Below, piece after piece: positions 9,241 through 64,000 of a stretch of 64,000 nt of DNA (positions are counted from its first letter, which is position 1; each line of letters opens with the position of its first letter). The translations under genes and the position numbers were made by a program. Origin of the DNA: Carcharhinus amblyrhynchos (Eukaryota); NCBI GenBank assembly GCA_965287045.1, contig OZ336873.1, positions 111,910,001 through 111,974,000 on the forward strand. The letters are read 5' to 3'. The notes below the pieces were generated by a model. The model was given only the letters and a program-made list of their open reading frames with translations. It made no database searches and was not told where the DNA came from.

Positions 9241-9261
9241 TTTGTTGAAGCTGTACTCATC

Positions 9262-9603
9262 CATGGTAGCACAGTGATTAACACTGCTGCTTCACAGCTC
9301 CAGGGACCTGGGTTCCATTCCCGACTTGGGTCACTGTCTGTGTGGAGTTTGCACATTCTCCCCGTGTCTGCATGGGTTTCCTCCAGGTGCTCTGGTCTCC
9401 TCCCACAGTCCAAAAATGTGTGGGTTAGGTTGATTGGCAATGCTAAAATTGCCCCTTAGTGTCCTGAGATGCACAGGTTAGAGGCATTAGTGGGTAAATG
9501 TGTGGGGATATGGGGTAGGGCCTTGGGTGGGATTGTAGTAGGTGCAGACTCGATGGGCCAAATGGCTTCTTTCTGCCCTGTAGTGTTTCTATGATTCTAT
9601 GAT
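9262..9603 (+). mobile_element. HE1 SINE, near full length
   Basis: tRNA-derived head, V-domain (GTGTGGAGTTTGCACATTCTCCCCGTGTCTGCATGGGTTTCCTCCAGGTGCTC), CR1-like tail ending TTCTATGATTCTATGAT. Confidence 0.95.
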
Positions 9604-9736: not shown

Positions 9737-11067
9737 GCATCTTGAAGGGAATTGCTTGATAGAGCAGACGCAACACGGTTTCGTTAAGGGGAAGTCGTGT
9801 CTGACAAATTTATTGGAGTTCTATGAGGATGTGTCTAGGGCGGTGGATAAAGGAGAGCCGGTGGATGTGGTCTTTTTTGATTTTCAGAAGGCGTTTGACA
9901 AGGTGCCTCACAAGAGGTTATTGCAGAAGGTAAGGGGGCACGGAGTTGGGAGTAGGGTGTTAGCGTGGATAGGGGATTGGTTGTCAAATAGGAGGCAGAG
10001 AGTGGGGGTTAATGGGTGCTATTCGGATTGGTGGTTGGTGACTAGTGGAGTGCCCCAGGGCTCGGTGCTGGGGCCTCAGCTTTTTACCATTTATATAGAT
10101 GATCTGGAGGAGGGAACCGAGTGTATGGTGTCGAAATTTGCTGATGACACCAAGACTGGTGGAACGGCAAATTGCGCGGAGGGTGTGGAGAGTCTGCAGA
10201 AGGATCTAGATAGGCTGGGCGAATGGGCCAGGAAATGACAAATGGAATTTAATGTTGGCAAGTGCGAGGTGGTCCACTTTGGTAGGAATAATGGTAGGAA
10301 AGACTATTACTTACGTGGCGAAAAACTGCAGCAGGCGATGGTGCAGAGGGACCTCGGGGTCCTTGTGCATGAGTTGCAAAAACCCAGCCTGCAGGTGCAG
10401 CAGGTGGTCAAGAAGGCGAATGGGATGCTGGCCTTCATAGTGAGGGGGATTGAATATAAAAGTAGGGAGGTCTTGCTGCGGCTGTATAGGGCATTGGTGA
10501 GGCCGCAGCTGGAGTACTGTGTGCAGTTTTGGTCGCCGTACTTACGCAAGGATATTTTGGCCTTGGAGGGAGTGCAGAGGAGGTTTACTAGGCTGATACC
10601 GGAGTTGAGGGGGTTGAGCTGTGAGGAGAGGCTGAATAAACTAGGTTTGTACTCGTTAGAGTTTAGAAGAATGAGGGGAGATCTCATTGAGACATATAAG
10701 ATGATGAATGGGATGGATAGGATAGAGGTGGAGAGACTCTTCCCGCTCAGAAAGGACAGTGGGTCTAGGGGGCACAGCCTCAAGATAAAGGGGGGGGCAG
10801 TTTAAAACGGAATTGAGGAGGAACTTCTTCACTGAAAGGTGGTGAATCTCTGGAATTCTCTGCCCGTTGAGGTGGTGGAGGCTGCCTCGCTAAGTATTTT
10901 TAAGACGCGGGTTGATAGGTTTTTGATAAGAGAGGGGATTAAGGGTTATGGGGAGAGGGCGGGAATGTGGAACTGAGCCACGACTGATCAGCCATGATCT
11001 TATTGAATGGCGGGGCAGGCTCGAAGGGCTAGATGGCCTACTCCTGCTCCTATTTCTCATGTTCTTA
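9737..11067 (+). mobile_element. Young 5'-truncated CR1 (HER1-like) LINE: RT domain plus 3' UTR
   Basis: [44 protein letters not shown] motifs; one TGG>TGA stop at 10236-10238; tail TTCTCATGTTCTTA; TGATG duplicated at 9732-9736 and 11068-11072. Confidence 0.97.
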
Positions 11068-11210
11068 TGATGTCCTGGAGCTGAGATGATTGACCTCTAA
11101 CAACCACAACCATTTTCCTTTGTGCCAAGTATGACTGCAGCCAGTGAAAAGTACCACCACCCACCCACCCACCACTGCCCCCCCCCCCACCCCCAACACC
11201 CCACCAATTT

Positions 11211-19646: not shown

Positions 19647-19779
19647 AGGTGATTCACCTGATGAAAGAGCAGCATCCTGAAAGCTCAGGATACCAAATAA
19701 TCCTGTTGGGCTTTAACCTGGTGTTGTGAAACTTCTTACTGTGCCCACCCCAGTCCAATGCCAGTATTGCCACATCATG
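19647..19779 (+). mobile_element. Penelope-derived short element (single arm) with a degenerate hammerhead core
   Basis: AGGTGATTCACCTGATGAAAGAGCAGCATCCTGAAAGCTC..CTTTAACCTGGTGTTGTGAAACTTCTTACTGTGCCCACCCCAGTCCAA; same family as 57022-57236. Confidence 0.8.
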
Positions 19780-32230: not shown

Positions 32231-32564
32231 CCTGTTGAAGACCATCACATGGTTTGCTTCTGTGTTGCGTGGCTCCCTATTTCTACCAGAGTGGAAATTG
32301 GGCTGAGTCCACCTGTTTTGGCTGTACAAGGTGTCCTTTTGGGTACCAAAATGTTGTCTGTGATGCACAACTACACTTTTGATGTGAATAGAGTGGATGC
32401 CACAATGATGTAAGGGTGCGCACATGCATTTGTTATCTTTTGAGAGCATGCAGAGCAGACAGATTATGATGTGAAAAAGCACGCATCATTTATCTGATGA
32501 AAACAGTGTCATTTTGGAGCTCTAGCTGTTATCCCACTGAACTGAACCCAACATTCCTGGGTGT

Positions 32565-32826
32565 TGGTTAGTACTGCTGCCTCACAGCTTTAGGGACCTG
32601 GGTTCAATTCTCGGCTTGGGTCACTGTCTGTGTGGAGTCTGCACATTCTGAGTAGGTTTCTTTTGGGTGCTCCAGTTTATTCCCACAGTCCAAAAGACAT
32701 GCTGGTTAGGTGAATTGGCCATGCTAAATTCTACCTCAGTGTACCTGAACAGGCAGTGTGGTGACTAGGGGATTTTCACAGTAACTTCACTAATGTAAGC
32801 CTACTTGTGACAATAAAACATAAAAC
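32565..32826 (+). mobile_element. HE1-like V-SINE, alternative tail
   Basis: GGTTAGTACTGCTGCCTCACAG..GACTAGGGGATTTTCACAGTAACTTC..CTACTTGTGACAATAAA. Confidence 0.88.
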
Positions 32827-33338
32827 AGTGCAAAGGATTCCCTACCAGTTATTCAAAGGGATTGTCGACAACTTACAAGTTGTGGGTTTACTCTTTTGGC
32901 TGTTGCTATGATTTTACATGTTCTTGTCACTTTCTATAGCTGCTTCAAGTTTCAAAATTCCTCAGGGAGTGATGTGGCAGGTGCTGAAGGAGATGCTGCT
33001 GACTTTGAGGATTCTGCACGAATCAGTTGCTCCAAGGCACAGGATGACTCCAGCAGGACTGGGAGAATATCCAAAGGTCATGCAGAGAAGGTCAAGCTGC
33101 TGGAAGAGGAGAGTGGCCACTGTGGGAAAAAGGACACTCAGCAGAAGGGTCATGACCACCAAGGTGCATGGGAGTAAGTTTCATCTTTGTATCTCAGTGA
33201 CAACCAAAGTGTGAGGCGTTTGGGCTGGGATTTTTTGGCCCCATTAGGATGGGACTCACAGCCACGAGAGATTTGGCATTGAGTCCATTGACTTCTGCCA
33301 GGACCAGAAGATCATGGCAGCAGACAGCATTGGAAGAT

Positions 33339-33655
33339 GATGGCACAGTGGCACAGTGGTTAGCACAGCTGCCTCACAGTGCCAGGGATCCAAATTCAAT
33401 TCACAGCTATGCGGAATCTGCACATTCTCCCTGTGTCTGAGTGGGTTTCCTCCGGGCACTCCAGTTTCCCCCCACAGTCCAAAAGATGCGCAGCTTAGGT
33501 GAATTAGCCATGCTAAGTTCTCCCTCAGTGTACCCGAACAGGCCGGAGTGAGGCGACTAGGGATTTTCACAGTAACTCCACTGCAGTGTTAATGTAAGCC
33601 TACTTGTGACATTAATAAATAAACTTTAAACTTTAAAACTTTGAAAAAACTTTAA
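33339..33655 (+). mobile_element. HE1-like V-SINE, alternative tail, full length (preceded by a small MITE at about 33222-33338)
   Basis: GGCACAGTGGCACAGTGGTTAGCAC..GTAACTCCACTGCAGTGTTAATGTAAGCCTACTTGTGACATTAATAAAT followed by (AAACTTT)n. Confidence 0.92.
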
Positions 33656-33966: not shown

Positions 33967-34804
33967 GGAAATGGCAAATGGAATTTAATGTTGGCAAGTG
34001 TGAGGTGGTCCACTTTGGTAGGAAGAATGGTACGAAGGACTATTACTTACGTGGCGAAAAACTGCAGCAGGCGACGGTGCAGAGGGACCTCGGGGTCCTT
34101 GTGCATGAGTCGCAAAAACCCAGCTTGCAGGTGCAGCAGGTGGTCAGGAAGGCTAATGGGATGCTGGCCTTCATAGCGAGGGGGATTGAATATAAAAGTA
34201 GGGAGGTCTTGCTGCAGCTGTATAGGGCATTGGTGAGGCCGCAGCTGGAGTACTGTGTGCAGTTTTGGGCGCCGCACCTGCGCAAGGATATTTTGGCCCT
34301 GGAGGGAGTGCAGAGGAGGTTTACTAGGCTGATACCGGAGTTGAGGGGATTGAGCTATGAGGAGAGGCTGAATAAACTAGGCTTGTACTCGTTAGAGTTT
34401 AGAAGAATGAGGGGAGATCTCATTGAGACGTATAAGATGATGAATGGGATGGATAGGATAGAGGTGGAGAGACTCTTCCCGCTCAAAAAAGACAGTAGGA
34501 CTAGGGGGCACAGCCTCAAGATAAAGGGGAGGCGGTTTTGAACGGAGTTGAGGAGGAACTTCTTCACTCAAAGGGTGGTGAATCTCTGGAATTCTCTGCC
34601 CGTTGAAGTGGTGGAGGCTGCTTCGCTAAATATTTTTAAGAAGCGGGTTGATGGGTTCTTGATAAGAGAGGGGATTAAGGGTTATGGGGAGAGGGCGGGA
34701 AAGTGGAACTGAGCTACGACAGATCAGCCATGATCTTATTGAATGGCGGGGCAGGCTCGAAGGGCTAGATGGCCTACTCCTGCTCCTATTTCTTATGTTC
34801 TTAT
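33967..34804 (+). mobile_element. Young 5'-truncated CR1 LINE, same subfamily as 9737-11067
   Basis: Open frame KWQMEFNVGKCEVVHFG..GHSLKIKGRRF nearly identical to 10242-10805; tail TTCTTATGTTCTTAT. Confidence 0.97.
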
Positions 34805-35849: not shown

Positions 35850-36160
35850 GGCAGAACAATGGCTCTGTGGTTGATATTACTGCCTCACAGCACCAGGGAT
35901 CAGGGCTCGATTTCTGGCTTGGGTCACTGTCTGTGTGGAGTTTGCATGTTCTCACCACGTCTGCATGGGTTTCCTTCAGGTGTGCCAGTTTTCTCCCACA
36001 GTCCAAAGATGTGCAGGTTAGGTGCATTGGCCATGCTAAATTGTCCCTCAGTGTACCCGAACAACAGCCGAAGTGTGGCGACTAGGGGATTTTCACTGTA
36101 ACTTCACTGTAGTGTTAATTTAAGCTTACTTGTGACTAATAAGTAAACTTTAAACATTTA
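35850..36160 (+). mobile_element. HE1-like V-SINE, alternative tail
   Basis: Head, V-domain and GTGGCGACTAGGGGATTTTCACTGTAACTTC..TTGTGACTAATAAG. Confidence 0.88.
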
Positions 36161-44895: not shown

Positions 44896-45410
44896 CCATC
44901 AAGTCCATGTTTGGTCTTTAGAAAGAGCAATCCATATTAGTTCCACTCTCCTGCTCTTTCCCCAAAACCCATTAAAATGCTTTCTCCTTCAAATATTTAT
45001 CCTGTTCTTTTCTGAAGGTTACTATTGCCTATTGCTTCAACTACGTGGAACCTGACCTGGATATTCCGTTCATGTTATCAGGTCAAAGCTGTCACCCTCA
45101 ATATCATTCCTGTTAAATAACCTGTTATCCCGTTGTGTTGGCCCTGTGCATTGCAGTGAATAATTCCTCACTCCAATTGAAAGCCAGAAAATTTCATGGA
45201 AAAGCTGCTAAATTTCAGTCTAATTCAGGGGAAAGTTGCTCTCCGAACTCCAAAGTGAGTGAATCTACTTGAGGTGATCATGATTAACATGAGAAGATTT
45301 TTAACTCTTAATTGTAATGATGCCCAAGCCAGAAGCAGGTCCAACCTCTCCCTATGATTACTTACTATTTTCTGTGAAAATAAGATTGCAATATCTTAAC
45401 TAATTTGACC

Positions 45411-45712
45411 TGGTGGCACAGTGGTTAGCACTGCTGCCTCACAGCACCAGGGACCCAGGTTCAGTTGTGGCCTCAAGTGACTGTTTGAATGGAGTCTGCA
45501 CATTCTTCCCATGTCTGAGTGGGTTTCCTACAGGTGCTCCGGTTTCCTCCCACAGTACAAAGATGTGCAAGTTAGGTTGATTGCCCCTTAGTGTGTAGGC
45601 TAGGTGGATTGGCTGTGATGGATGTGCAGGGTGCAGGGATGGAACAGTGGGGTGGGCCTGGGTAAGAGGTTCTTTGTAGGGTCACTGCATACTCAAAGGG
45701 CTCCTCTCTATA
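45411..45712 (+). mobile_element. HE1 SINE
   Basis: TGGTGGCACAGTGGTTAGCACTGCTGCCTCACAGCACCAGGGACCCAGGTTC, V-domain and TTGCCCCTTAGTG. Confidence 0.88.
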
Positions 45713-55765: not shown

Positions 55766-56085
55766 GGGTGGCACGGTGGCTCAATGGTTAGCACTGCTGT
55801 CTCAGTGCGCCAGGGATCTGGGTTCAATTCTCACCTCGGGTGATCGTGTGGAGTTTGCACGTTCTCTCCGTGCCTGCATGAATTTCCTTCAGGTGCTCTG
55901 GTTTCCTCCAACAGTCCAAAAAAGTGCAGATTAGGTGGATTTGCCATACTAAAATTGCCCCTTAGTGTTGGGGGATTAGTAGGGTAAATATGTGGGGTTA
56001 TGGGGATAGGACCTGAGTGGAATTGTTGTTGATGCTGCTCAAAGGGCCAAATGGCCTCCTTCTGCACTTTCAGGATTCTAAAAAT
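55766..56085 (+). mobile_element. HE1 SINE, full length
   Basis: GGGTGGCACGGTGGCTCAATGGTTAGCAC, V-domain, GGGCCAAATGGCCTCCTTCTGCAC..GGATTCTA. Confidence 0.93.
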
Positions 56086-57021
56086 TCCATCATTGAATTA
56101 AGTCATCATTAGACTACAACTCAATTTAGCCACTTTTCTCGATATTCCTTACTATGTTTACCTCACAAAAATTTATCCATTTCAGCCTTCAAATTTTTGA
56201 CTGGCCCAACATGCACCATTTTTTGGGAGAAAAAAAATTAAAGTACCATAAGGAAATAATATTTGCAAAAAGCTAGAACCTTGGAGAAAAAACTTCAATG
56301 ACAATTTTTTTTAAATAACACAAAAAGATTCAATGGATAAATTCAACCATTCTTATTTGCTATTTTATGTAAATTCTTAGTTTGGACATGGAATTTTCAG
56401 TTAAAAAAAAGCTGGCAGAATATTAATTTCAGAAAGCATTTAAGTAATTTGATTAGTTCAGCAACAATCCACAACAATTCAAAATAACATTTAGATTGTA
56501 TCATTGATAGGGGTGGATTTCCCAGATGGGGCTGGTCAGACGAGAGAGACGAGTTTTTGTCCTGATATGCTGTGGAGATTTCATTCAATAACATACTTTT
56601 TTTTAAAATATAGAATCATCAACCAAAAGTTAGCCTGAACAACAGGCTTAGCTGCTAATCAGGGGCAGGTTGCAGGATCAGGTTGTGACTCACTGCTGTT
56701 AGTGGGATCCTGGTGGGGTTTCCAAAACCCAACCCTGGGACAGAGTTCTTTGGATGGGGGGGGGGGCACGTGGGGCAGGTCCAACCTGAAGGGAGGGTTT
56801 TCTGATGGGAGAGAAGTAGGTAACTTGGTGGGCTGTGACAAAGCAACTCTTACTTCTTCTTGACTCACAGGCCATGTTGTAAAGACATTTACCTTTACCC
56901 CAAAGGGGTGTGTTGCAGGATCTGAATAAGTTGGCCAGTGAGGACTGCACCTTTCAGGTGCATTGTGTGATACATGTAACCTCATTATAATATTTAAATA
57001 GACAGCCCATATCCTAGGAAC

Positions 57022-57236
57022 AGTGAGAAGTCTCACAACACCAGGTTAAAATCCAACAGATTTATTTAGTACCATGAGCTTTTGGAGCACTGCTCCTTCA
57101 TCAGATGAGCCACTTACCTGACGAAGGAGCAGTGTTCTGAAAGCTCGTGATACAAAATAAACCTTTTGGACTTAAACTTGGTGTTGTGAGACTTCTTACT
57201 ATGCCCACCCCAGTCCAACGCTGGAATCTTCACATC
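57022..57236. mobile_element. Fold-back (palindromic) Penelope-derived short element
   Basis: 57022-57109 is the near-perfect reverse complement of 57113-57200, followed by a tail ..GCCCACCCCAGTCCAACGCTGGAATCTTCACATC. Confidence 0.9.
57115..57150 (+). ncRNA. Minimal type I hammerhead ribozyme motif (PLE-associated)
   Basis: tac-CUGACGA-a-ggagc-agu-guucu-GAAA-gc-UC-gug: intact CUGANGA and GAAA boxes, helix II with G-U wobbles, short helix I, vestigial helix III. Activity not shown. Confidence 0.65.
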
Positions 57237-59340
57237 TCCACAGAATGGATGGACTGACAGGCATCTGTCCTGCCTTCATTAAACCCAAACATGGGCAGCT
57301 TGCAGTCTGGTTTGAAATTTTCAAATATTTACAACTCACACGATCACTTACACGATACCTATTTTTACCCACAAGGTTTTTTAATTGTAATGTGTTGAAT
57401 TATGGGTTTTCTACTGTAAAATCATAACTCAGGCAGTAAGGTTAATGTCTATAACTCTTGCACACATTACACATAATTTTGAAGAATAAATAGATAATGG
57501 ATTTAGTTCGTGAACTATCATCATTCTGTTTCCTGAGCTATAATTTGTTCCCACTTTCGCTGTTTGCCAATGTGGTGATTCATTCTGAAGACAATGTCTC
57601 TGGGCAATTTCCATTTGCCATAAATAACTTAGACAACCTGCTAAGGCCTTCCTGTCAAGCTGAACCAGGTCAGCAGTTGTTTACAAACAGAAGAAGCATT
57701 CCAAGCTCAGTGTAAAATGTTTGGCAGGTGGGGCCAGAAGGAAAATTGTGACCCTCCACACCCCTTGTACCCTGCTCCCCCGTTCTACCCCTATTTGTTG
57801 CTTCAGATTCCATTTCATCATTTGAGGGCTTCTCCTAAACCTTCTTCAAACCATTTATCTTCACACCAATCTTTGTGTCTTTGGATCAGTACCATTTTGA
57901 CGAGGCTTAAATGTTGAAACACCTTGGACCTGAATCCTAGGCCAAAGAGTGTGTTTCTTCATCATGAGGTTCAAATGGATCTCCTAAATACCTGAGGAGA
58001 TAATCAGAAAAGGCAAAACTGTGAGTGAAAGAACTTTGTGACCCAAGCAGCAATGTTGCATAAAAAAATTGTCAAACCAAACATAACGGACAATAGTTCT
58101 AGCAAGGGATAGCTGAATAACCAAGTGTTACATTAAGATAACTTTGCTGGATCAAAACTTTTGCTGGTTTTTAGAAAGTCATTACTCACAAATTCGTACC
58201 TGATTGCATTCCAAAAGGGTCCAGCTACAGGCAAGCTGCTTGCAGTAAAGACAACCTGGTTGATCAATGATTTCAATAGGACTTAACAATAAGCACTTTT
58301 CTCCCTTTCACACGGCAATAGTGTATGAGAAAGAGAGGGACACAGAGACAGGTATGATATATAAACCTAAACTGCTAATATTACGCTGCTGCTATTACAG
58401 ATCTTTTCAACTGGTACAGAATATTGATGTGCAATGCAGCAACTCACACAGCCAAAACGAGACACATTAATGATCTTGGAGATAACTTCCCTGCCACATC
58501 CTTTGCATCTGATTGAAGTGGGTCAAACTCATCACATCAACTAACCTTAGCAACTTTACCAGGCTCAACAGGAAGTGCTGATCTTTCTCTGAAAACTGTC
58601 GCACCATGCTCCAGTAATCCATCACTGGGCAAGAACAGCCTTGGTACAGCATTGCCAATTACAATACGAACAAACACATTTTTTTCTGTTAAAATCATAC
58701 TCTCCTAGTAACTTCTCACCTACATTTGTTGCTAGATTGCTCCAGGATAGTTCAGATCTGATTACCAGAGAAATGGGATGATTTTAGTCAAAGCGAGTAT
58801 GATAATTTCATCGAGGCAGAATGGTGATTATACTTCTCAAGAGAATTTCAACTTGATCCATTCAATTCTGAAGAGATAACACGAATTTCCAACCCACTGC
58901 CCAAAGTGTTCAACTGAATAGATTTTTTTGTGTAGAATTAATTAAAAATAGTAGTAGCTCAAAAATGTATGCTCATAATGTTGCTAAAAAGAAAAGGAAG
59001 CCTAAGGGTCTCAGAAATCAACCAAGGAATTGATAAAAAATGAAAATAATAAAATGAGAGTAAACTACCAAGAAATATAAAATCAGATTGCCAATGAACT
59101 TATACAAACATCTAAAAAGGAAGAGATTAGTGAAAGTAAACCCTTAGGGGCAGAGACAGAAGTTATAATGAGGCATAAGGAAATGGCAGAGATGTTGAAC
59201 AAATATCATGTATCTGACCTCACAGTCGAGCACACAGAACACACCATTACTATTGGAACCTGCACCAACAATCCCACCCAGACCCTATGCCCATAACCCT
59301 GCATATTTATCCGGCCAAGTCCTCTGACCCTAAGGAACAA

Positions 59341-59672
59341 TGGTGGCACAGCGGTTAGCACTGCTGCCTCACAGCACAATGAGAGACCTTTGGTATGCCT
59401 CACAGCACCAGGGACACGGGTTCAGTTCCGGCCTCGGGTGACTGTCTGTGTGGAGTTTGCATGTTCTCCCCATGGCTGTGTGGGTTTCCTCCTGGTGCTC
59501 CAGTTGCCTTCCATTGTCCAAAGATGTGCAGGTCAAGTGGACTGTCCATACTAAATTGCCTCTTAGTGTCAGGGGTAATTAGGGACTAAGGGGACAGAGC
59601 CTTGGTGGATTTGTTGTCGGTGCAGGCTTAATGGGCCAAATGGCCTCATTCTGCACTGTAGGGATTCTATGA
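59341..59672 (+). mobile_element. HE1 SINE with a duplicated head segment, flanked by decayed CR1 sequence (about 58950-59230 and 59690-59830)
   Basis: Head, V-domain and GGGATTCTATGA tail; TGCCTCACAGCAC occurs twice. Confidence 0.9.
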
Positions 59673-62713: not shown

Positions 62714-63795
62714 TTTTAAAAATGTAGTCTTTCAAAGGATGTGGTTGTTGCTGGCAAGGTCAGCATTTGTCACCCATTCCGAATTGCCTGTGGGATGGAG
62801 GTAGTGTCGCCTGCTTTTACAATCACTGTAGTCCAAGTGGTGCAGATACACCCACAGTGTGGTTAGAAAGGGAGTTCCAGGATTTTGGTAGAACAACAGT
62901 GAAGCAATGATGTTTTAGCTTCTAGTCAGGGTGGCTGTGCAGTTTAGTGGTGAACTTGCAGGTTGTGGTGTTCCCATGCATTTGCAGTCTTTGTTCTTCT
63001 AGGTAGCAGTACAGGTCATGAGTTTGCAATGTGCTATTGAAAGAGGCTTGGCAAGTTGCTCTACTGCATCTTCTATAGGGTACACACTGCTGCCACTGTG
63101 CACCGATGATGGATGTCATAGAAATCATGCAGGCTGCTTTGTTTTGGATGGAGTTGAGATTCTTCAGTGATTTTGGAGCTGCTATCATCCAGGAAAGTGG
63201 AGAGTATTCCATCACAACACTCACTTATGTCTCATAGATAATTGACCGGCTTTGGGGACTCAAGAGGTGGGTTATTCACCTCAGAATTTCTGAGTCTCTG
63301 ACCTGTCCCTGCAGTCATAATATTTTTATGGCTAGACCAATTAAGATTTTGGCCAATGGTAAGCCTGACGATATTGATATTGAAGTATTCAGCAAATGAA
63401 CATTAAGGGGAAATGGTATGCCCTATTCTGTGTTGCTAGATTTGATCTGAATCCATCATATTTTGCATGGTGGTGGTGTCACACAACACAATGAAGGGTA
63501 TTTTCAATGTGAAGACAGGACTTAATCTCTACATGGACTGTGTGGTTATTACTCCTACCAATGTTATCATGGGCAGATGCATCTGCAACAGGTAGATTGG
63601 TGAAGATGATGTTAAGTAGGTTTTATATTCTGGTTGGTTCCTTCATCACCTGCCACTGACCCAGTCTAGCAGCTATGTCCTTTAGAACTTGGCCAACCCA
63701 GTCAATAGTGAAGCTGCCGAGTTACTCTTGGTGATGCACATTGAAACCCTCCAGAGTATATTCTATACCCTTGCCACTCAATGCTTCCTTTCAAC
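62714..63795 (-). mobile_element. LINE family B, 3' end plus upstream fragments
   Basis: Minus ORF SVVMEYSPLSWMIAAPKSLKNLNSIQNKAACMI; 63460-63780 is colinear with 12450-12740. Confidence 0.8.
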
Positions 63796-63797
63796 AT

Positions 63798-63993
63798 TAA
63801 GAAGTCTCATAACACCAAGTTAAGGTCTAACGGGTTTATTTGGAATCACAAGCTTTCGAGTGCTTCTCCTTCATCAGGTGATAAAGGCTCCGAAGTCTCG
63901 TGATTCCAAATAAACCTGTCAGACTTTAACCTGATATTGTGAGACTTCTTACTGTGCTTAAACCAGTCCAACGCTGGCATCTCCACATCATGG
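63798..63993. mobile_element. Fold-back Penelope-derived short element with a minus-strand hammerhead-like motif (63845-63882)
   Basis: Arms TAAGAAGTCTCATAACACC.. / ..TTGTGAGACTTCTTA; minus strand reads atcac-CUGAUGA-aggagaagcacuc-GAAA-gc-UU-gugau. Confidence 0.85.
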
Positions 63994-64000
63994 TTAGCAT

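Follow-up and report, generated by a model that had tools for sequence, protein, structure and literature searches.

Penelope-like elements that carry an endonuclease (EN+) are described as forming a unit in which a direct pLTR stands next to an inverted, 5'-truncated copy, with a tail of 30-40 bp on one side only and a target site duplication (TSD) around the whole (PMC8557442; for Pen2a_Av of Adineta, PMC3846280). In the published classification, a CX2-5CxxC linker between the reverse transcriptase (RT) and the endonuclease (EN) defines Neptune and is common to Nematis too (PMC8557442). A minimal hammerhead motif on its own is reported not to cleave, and pairs of motifs lying 100-700 bp from each other on opposite strands have been ascribed to truncated Penelope-like elements (PMC4209133). 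For Poseidon of Anolis carolinensis (PAc), the tail is reported to be bounded by a pair of neighbouring internal RT start sites; both target strands are extended in vitro, and the protein is predicted to be a dimer (PMC11167929).

The window analysed here is a stretch of 64,000 nucleotides from Carcharhinus amblyrhynchos (contig OZ336873.1, positions 111,910,001 to 111,974,000). The unit at 57022-57236 is a very short, decayed end (about the last 130 nt) of an abundant coding Neptune-type Penelope element. This end is present as two head-to-head arms, one with a 36-39-nt tail and one without. We consider it probable (about 0.8) that twin target-primed reverse transcription doubled the truncated 3' end in this way, and that the copy has probably been immobile and non-cleaving since. 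The features of this unit and of its two relatives in the window are:

57022-57109, minus strand: inverted, tail-less, 5'-truncated pLTR arm, about -41 to -127 counted from the end of the ORF start codon.
57073-57107, minus strand: minimal type I hammerhead motif in which G12 (57083) and G1.1, each at a CpG, have become A; helix II intact in isolation.
57111-57236, plus strand: direct, 5'-truncated pLTR arm with tail, reaching about -130; 112 of 126 positions agree with the family A majority and 97 of 126 with the young family B.
57115-57149, plus strand: minimal type I hammerhead motif with C17 at 57146; its core letters are all in place, and helix II has decayed.
57201-57236, plus strand: unpaired Penelope tail, which ends at the ATG of the ORF in intact elements.
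57008-57020, no strand: possible decayed left TSD, matching 57233-57245 at 9 of 13 positions, not significant.
63798-63992, plus strand: second fold-back copy with the outer ends of the 57022 copy and a different, shorter centre; direct-arm hammerhead lost.
63783-63797, no strand: left TSD of the 63798 copy, 15 bp with 1 mismatch; the right TSD begins at 63997 and extends beyond the window.
19654-19779, plus strand: third copy, a direct arm standing alone, with tail and hammerhead motif; its truncation edge is that of the 57022 copy.

The sequence-only reading described an inverted repeat of about 88 bp per arm with a 3-nt spacer. The palindrome and its spacer are real, and the arms measure 93 nt (57017-57109 and 57113-57205, 82% complementary, 3 nt apart). 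Compared with 200 shuffles, the folding energy of the 215-nt unit has a z-score of -17.8 or -15.2, depending on the strand, and none of the shuffles (0/200) folded as well. The tail, that is the last 36 nt, has no partner in the left arm and had been overlooked. The unit itself contains no ORF, and no ADAR-type A>G scar was seen in the arms within the window. We found no significant TSD at this copy, the best candidate being 13 nt with 4 mismatches. The unit had been said to recur at 63798; the outer boundary is indeed shared, and the centre there is different and shorter. Taken as a whole, the earlier description stands for the palindrome, both hammerhead motifs and the shared outer boundary, and fails for the fixed unit, the helix I covariation and the intact plus-strand ribozyme. 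A tandem arrangement is absent in all three window copies (57022, 63798 and 19654). The window also holds a recurrent repeat (9261-9594, 32551-33553, 35854-36136, 45408-45609, 55771-56083 and 59338-59672), which we take to be tRNA-headed and SINE-like, and two copies of a repeat that looks like a LINE 3' end (10231-11068 and 33967-34804, 95-96% identity).

Three subfamilies were compared: A, which is older and is the window's own; B, a young sister; and C, a third. Families A and B are only about 77% alike. A genome search with the unit returned 5025 candidates, 40 of which were scored. The 30 best matches to the 57022 copy have both outer ends in common and differ at their centres, and TSD-like flanks accompany 21 of the 30 (control, 1/30). 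Because this best-match set is biased to the length of the query, DNA was also drawn blind to position. These 600 kb contained 27 loci, 12 of them with both orientations within 300 nt, which extrapolates to approximately 130,000 loci for all subfamilies. Arms at the position-blind loci range from about 50 nt to 1058 nt. One family B locus (L034:5495-7631) is a palindrome with 1058-bp arms, 100% complementary and 21 nt apart, each of which contains an open 258-codon GIY-YIG endonuclease frame.

Many copies of family B are 98-99% identical, the genome contains 6594 exact matches to its tail, and a 917-codon open frame occurs in at least five loci among the matches listed. The layout is pLTR-ORF-pLTR, plus inverted and tandem pieces. 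The ORF of 893 aa starts at the ATG that closes the tail, matches RVT_1 (E 1.5e-9) and GIY-YIG (E 1.9e-4, slightly below the Pfam cut-off), and carries DKG and YIDD motifs, a CX4CXXC linker (residues 755-763) and a CCHH motif whose two cysteines lie between GIY and YIG (residues 793-809 and 822-839). The linker recurs in the family A copy L185, and the CCHH motif in L185, L148 and L166. Given the presence of RT, DKG, the CX4CXXC linker and CCHH, family B appears, by its linker motif, to be Neptune-type; the named homologues of its protein are from sharks. Long family A copies match the family B ORF at 55-78%, with stops; L185 has 74% aa identity over residues 718-893, and L150 extends to the RT. 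Every long family A copy among the loci examined carries stops and no intact ORF was found there, so the nature of the family A source is deduced from B. The Penelope origin proposed earlier is borne out by long copies with the same ends that run into EN and RT. Loci L121-L125 (e.g. L123:4340-7522 and L124:2267-8909) are apparently intact full-length Neptune-type elements, and L124 has a near-100% identical partial tandem with an inverted head. Pieces of this endonuclease also lie inside annotated shark isoforms of septin 5a, XRCC5, USP8 and others (P0003, P0011, P0012, P0014 and P0017-P0019), as exonised fragments or annotation artefacts.

For a survey of whole families, copies were chosen by an exact tail match, blind to the upstream sequence. 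The family A sample comprised 70 of 246 tail matches. The family B sample comprised 90 of 6594, the first along the largest contig with three already-sampled or adjacent ones skipped, and removal of two segmental duplicates left 88. Both are first copies along the largest contigs, and picking by exact tail favours less decayed copies. Arm lengths in family C are unreliable, the reference being of another subtype, and only its TSD and target counts were used. Fold-backs make up 44/70 copies in family A, with distinct centres in all 44, and 66/88 in family B, with distinct centres in 62. TSDs of at least 10 bp flank 28/44 fold-backs of family A, compared with 0/44 in a shifted control and 3/26 solo copies. 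In family B, where five loci whose far end lay beyond the retrieved DNA were left unscored, TSDs of 11-17 bp (mode, 12-13) flank 61 of the 64 scored fold-backs, compared with 0/64 in the control and 1/19 solo copies. A single ORF with RT and C-terminal GIY-YIG (family B), pLTRs in tandem or inverted arrangement with an optional 30-40-bp tail, and these TSDs at the level of the family are all features of EN+ Penelope-like elements, and by everything examined the window unit and its family are members of that group. Several places show the same insertion within the same flanks (L337-L340, L202/L207 and L215/L218) and are host segmental duplications.

The arms of family B span 45 to more than 1500 nt. 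The helix II variant is matched between both arms in 27 of 31 family B loci (0.13 expected). For family A arms, the values for shared non-CpG changes are 1.0 within a locus, 0.53 left-left and 0.66 right-right, and this family has no separate left-arm and right-arm lineages. Distinct centres together with matched arms argue that every palindrome arose separately, upon insertion, from the RNA of one source. The 57022 unit was therefore likely made afresh when it inserted and does not represent a fixed mini-element family. The proposal of a fixed 215-bp unit founders on the shorter, different centre at 63798 and on the 44 distinct centres among 44 in the genome-wide sample. The check suggested with it, for fixed boundaries and TSDs, gave fixed outer ends and TSDs on fold-backs, with centres that vary. 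The contrary possibility, simple inverted 5' truncations of a Penelope family, describes the centre correctly; the outer ends are fixed, and for this there is a mechanistic reason.

Both hammerheads of the unit are recognisable as minimal type I motifs; at the family level, the core is conserved and the variants of helix II, judged by eye, still pair. The core letters on the plus strand are intact, as had been noted, with C17 at 57146, and helix II has decayed to G-U pairs. The minus-strand motif with G12 read as A is confirmed (57107-57073, change at 57083). In the plus arm alone helix II has a predicted pairing probability of 0.004-0.005; in the minus arm alone it is predicted to form (0.98), yet G12 is absent. 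In the whole 215-nt RNA the predicted probability of helix II is 0.0 on either strand, and forcing it within the hairpin would cost 19-25 kcal/mol. The long hairpin is thus predicted to bury both motifs: a transcript of either strand would contain a motif and fold as had been proposed, and the fold would sequester both. An Rfam scan matched no hammerhead family at E<=1, and a mir-734 match (E 0.91) reflects the hairpin only.

Helix I (cat/atg on the minus strand) had been thought to keep its pairing by compensatory change. G1.1>A occurs in 31/187 arms and C>T in 14/187, with both in 3 (Fisher p=0.71), rates that are approximate as about 40 of the 187 arms have B/C-type letters; cat/atg is CpG decay (G1.1>A) plus a C>T, and not covariation. 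G12>A, at a CpG, is found in 41/187 arms of the same set. Non-CpG mismatches amount to 3.0% in the core and 5.9% downstream (p=0.07), so that the core, which had been expected to be more conserved than its flanks, decays roughly like them. The 31 family B direct arms contain 11 helix II variants, with the stem kept as read by eye, and family A has a further form. Selection acts on the motif in the mobile element, since source lineages vary helix II yet keep the stem; inserted copies decay. A pile-up of arm ends at the hammerhead cut site is not evident in family A, where 2/70 direct arms end at 90-96.

Twin priming would proceed as follows. The protein of the element, likely a dimer, would nick both target strands about 12-13 bp apart. 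One target 3' end would prime where the tail ends, i.e. at the ATG; the other would use a site 36-39 nt upstream of it on RNA from the same source. Each cDNA would grow towards the RNA 5' end and most often halt near -130, a position immediately 5' of the hammerhead that is probably where transcription starts. The ends of the two cDNAs would then be joined, often via local palindromes or a few filler bases. There is a ribozyme motif on each strand because the pLTR is duplicated in reverse. The same ends are found on copies of every length, including those that reach the coding region. In cDNA polarity the inverted arm is the top-strand extension of the left TSD, and the direct arm is likewise an extension on the bottom strand; judged from the sequence and from standard target-primed reverse transcription, this polarity fits two primed nicks. 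The inverted arm begins at about -101 or -123 rather than -40 in L236, L249 and L265. The -101 start adjoins the hammerhead cut site (2/66) and may reflect priming at the end of a cleaved RNA. Inverted family B arms form a second cluster at about 384-411 nt, in the last ORF codons (L216, L224, L240, L242, L251, L266 and L287).

The recurring size of about 215 bp arises because arms stop near -130. In family A, 49/114 arms end between -120 and -135 and a single one between -136 and -160 (arm-length values of at least 281 are lower bounds), and both arms measure 120-133 nt in 11/44 fold-backs, the class of the 57022 copy. The near-constant size that caught the eye in the sequence-only reading is therefore real as a mode. 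The family A pLTR has TATATG at -158 and an initiator-like CCACTC at -130, and the TATA-to-initiator spacing of 30 nt is the same in family B. The edge is probably the RNA start, with run-off, and this is its likeliest reading. D. virilis Penelope is reported to use an internal promoter that has no TATA box (PMC2377424). The family B edge is broader, with clusters at -133 to -137 and -145 to -149 and many longer arms, so a single start site is inadequate there. The junction G comes from the inverted arm, and no GT..AG joint was present among the rows listed for contigs of four sequencing runs presumed to be RNA. The edge could instead be due to RT stalling at hammerhead helix I or at a protein-bound ribozyme fold, which would alter just this one step of twin priming. 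The coincidence of the edge with the 5' strand of helix I would agree with a stall, as would the raised termination in family B across -90 to -200 (0.8-1.2 per 100 nt, compared with 0.13-0.24 outside). Given that the 30-nt spacing is kept in two families so little alike, and that the family A edge is sharp and one-sided, we regard stalling as a possible but doubtful cause.

Twin priming itself has to be weighed against a snap-back, in which a single cDNA would fold back at a local palindrome and serve as its own template, and the endonuclease would resolve the other end at the edge of the tail. Both self-priming and resolution by the EN have been suggested in print (PMC3846280, PMC8557442), and the match of the two arms in their helix II variant agrees with them. 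The 57022 copy, without a significant TSD, is a counterpoint to twin priming, and so are the 23/66 family B fold-backs that are symmetric within 5 nt, where 3.4 would be expected, with centres on local palindromes of the template. Symmetric centres are compatible with both mechanisms. The tail-less arm, however, exceeds the tailed arm by more than 20 nt in 16/66 (family B) and 9/44 (family A) loci; a longer arm without tail excludes a simple snap-back of one cDNA at such loci, unless a later central deletion of the palindrome is invoked, which could shorten either arm. A symmetric target dyad and TSDs restricted to fold-backs point to use of both nicks, and two RT start sites have been demonstrated in vitro (PMC11167929). 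We therefore consider a snap-back unlikely, and prefer twin priming. Less credible still is the idea of a non-autonomous, retrozyme-like family, in which the 215-bp hairpin would move as a unit through transcription, hammerhead cleavage and retrotransposition. It would account for the fixed outer ends and TSDs and for the size mode, both cores are intact in 6/24 best-matching copies, and retrozymes are described as pLTR derivatives and as present in a chondrichthyan (10.64898/2026.07.22.740005). Against it stand the differing centres, which extend to the 30 best matches, the same ends on coding copies, the lack of arm-specific lineages, the decay of the core and loss of G12, and the burial of helix II in the predicted hairpin. 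Priming by the lizard element is reported to require about 55 nt of ORF past the start sites (PMC11167929), which the stump lacks. There is neither a head-to-tail tandem with same-strand hammerheads nor a unit of defined sequence that is amplified. The unit is not a retrozyme, and the retrozyme-like reading is largely refuted.

Target sites came from loci L201-L290 (family B empty sites) and L332-L361. Family B empty sites have CTG about 11 nt to the left and CAG about 11 nt to the right of the TSD centre, with a spacing of 16 (20 sites) or 17 (9 sites). The dyad is often CTGG...CCAG and is centred on the 12-13-bp TSD. Both half-sites occur in 30/61 family B targets, or 21/49 after merging similar targets, compared with 1.2% of random positions, the motif and its window having been chosen on the family B data themselves. 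The dyad is present in 6/20 family C targets (6/17 after merging four copies of one duplicated locus) and in 0/27 family A targets. Solo family B copies retain the downstream half-site in 14/19 cases, against a background of 12%. L216 and L290 are independent insertions, with differing arm lengths, at the same site of another repeat; several further targets recur in repeats, reducing 61 sites to 49 clusters. On balance we lean towards a wider view, in which the stumps, numbering tens of thousands, would document dimeric Penelope integration as it happened in vivo: a spaced-dyad cut (CTG-N16-CAG in B) with a 12-13-nt 3' overhang, both ends primed on one RNA at two fixed sites a tail length apart, run-off at the capped 5' end, and target specificity gained or lost between sister subfamilies of one genome.

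Taken alone, the 57022 locus is an unremarkable dead stump. Its family is of importance, as the origin of Penelope inverted repeats and tails is presented as an open question in the published accounts (PMC8557442, PMC11167929). With a seemingly intact 893-aa element, near-identical insertions in the thousands and a defined target preference, the genome makes twin priming and the cut geometry directly testable.

The anatomy of the fold-back is already published (PMC8557442, PMC3846280, PMC4209133). The published EN+ Penelope unit has the same arrangement, a tail on one arm, a TSD, and a TATA and initiator-like motif in the pLTR; here both arms are only the last ~130 nt, the coding sequence is gone and the copy number is very high. 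The hammerheads share with the minimal motifs of PMC4209133 the core, an unpaired base after A9, a long helix II and a palindromic AGCU in place of helix III. Unlike the dual motifs of that study, the two motifs here stand back to back (~10 nt apart) and both are damaged. The family resembles PAc in the adjacent internal start sites delimiting the tail, in the cutting and extension of both strands and in a hammerhead near the ORF start. PAc is reported to prefer AT-rich ATT as its target and to lack a linker zinc finger (PMC11167929); in family B, by contrast, the linker has the CX4CXXC motif, the tail runs to the ATG and the target is a spaced dyad. Metazoan non-LTR retrozymes are likewise non-coding and pLTR-derived with a type I hammerhead; they are described as head-to-tail tandems with a ribozyme per unit, whereas the window unit is head-to-head and its centre differs from copy to copy (10.64898/2026.07.22.740005). 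In the main texts of the open-access literature we found no account of twin priming, run-off or a dyad target for Penelope elements. In the twin priming of L1, a second target nick primes on the same RNA and produces a 5' inversion inside the TSD, and the inverted part is a non-overlapping upstream segment. In the shark family, by contrast, a single segment is copied into both arms, starting from two fixed sites.
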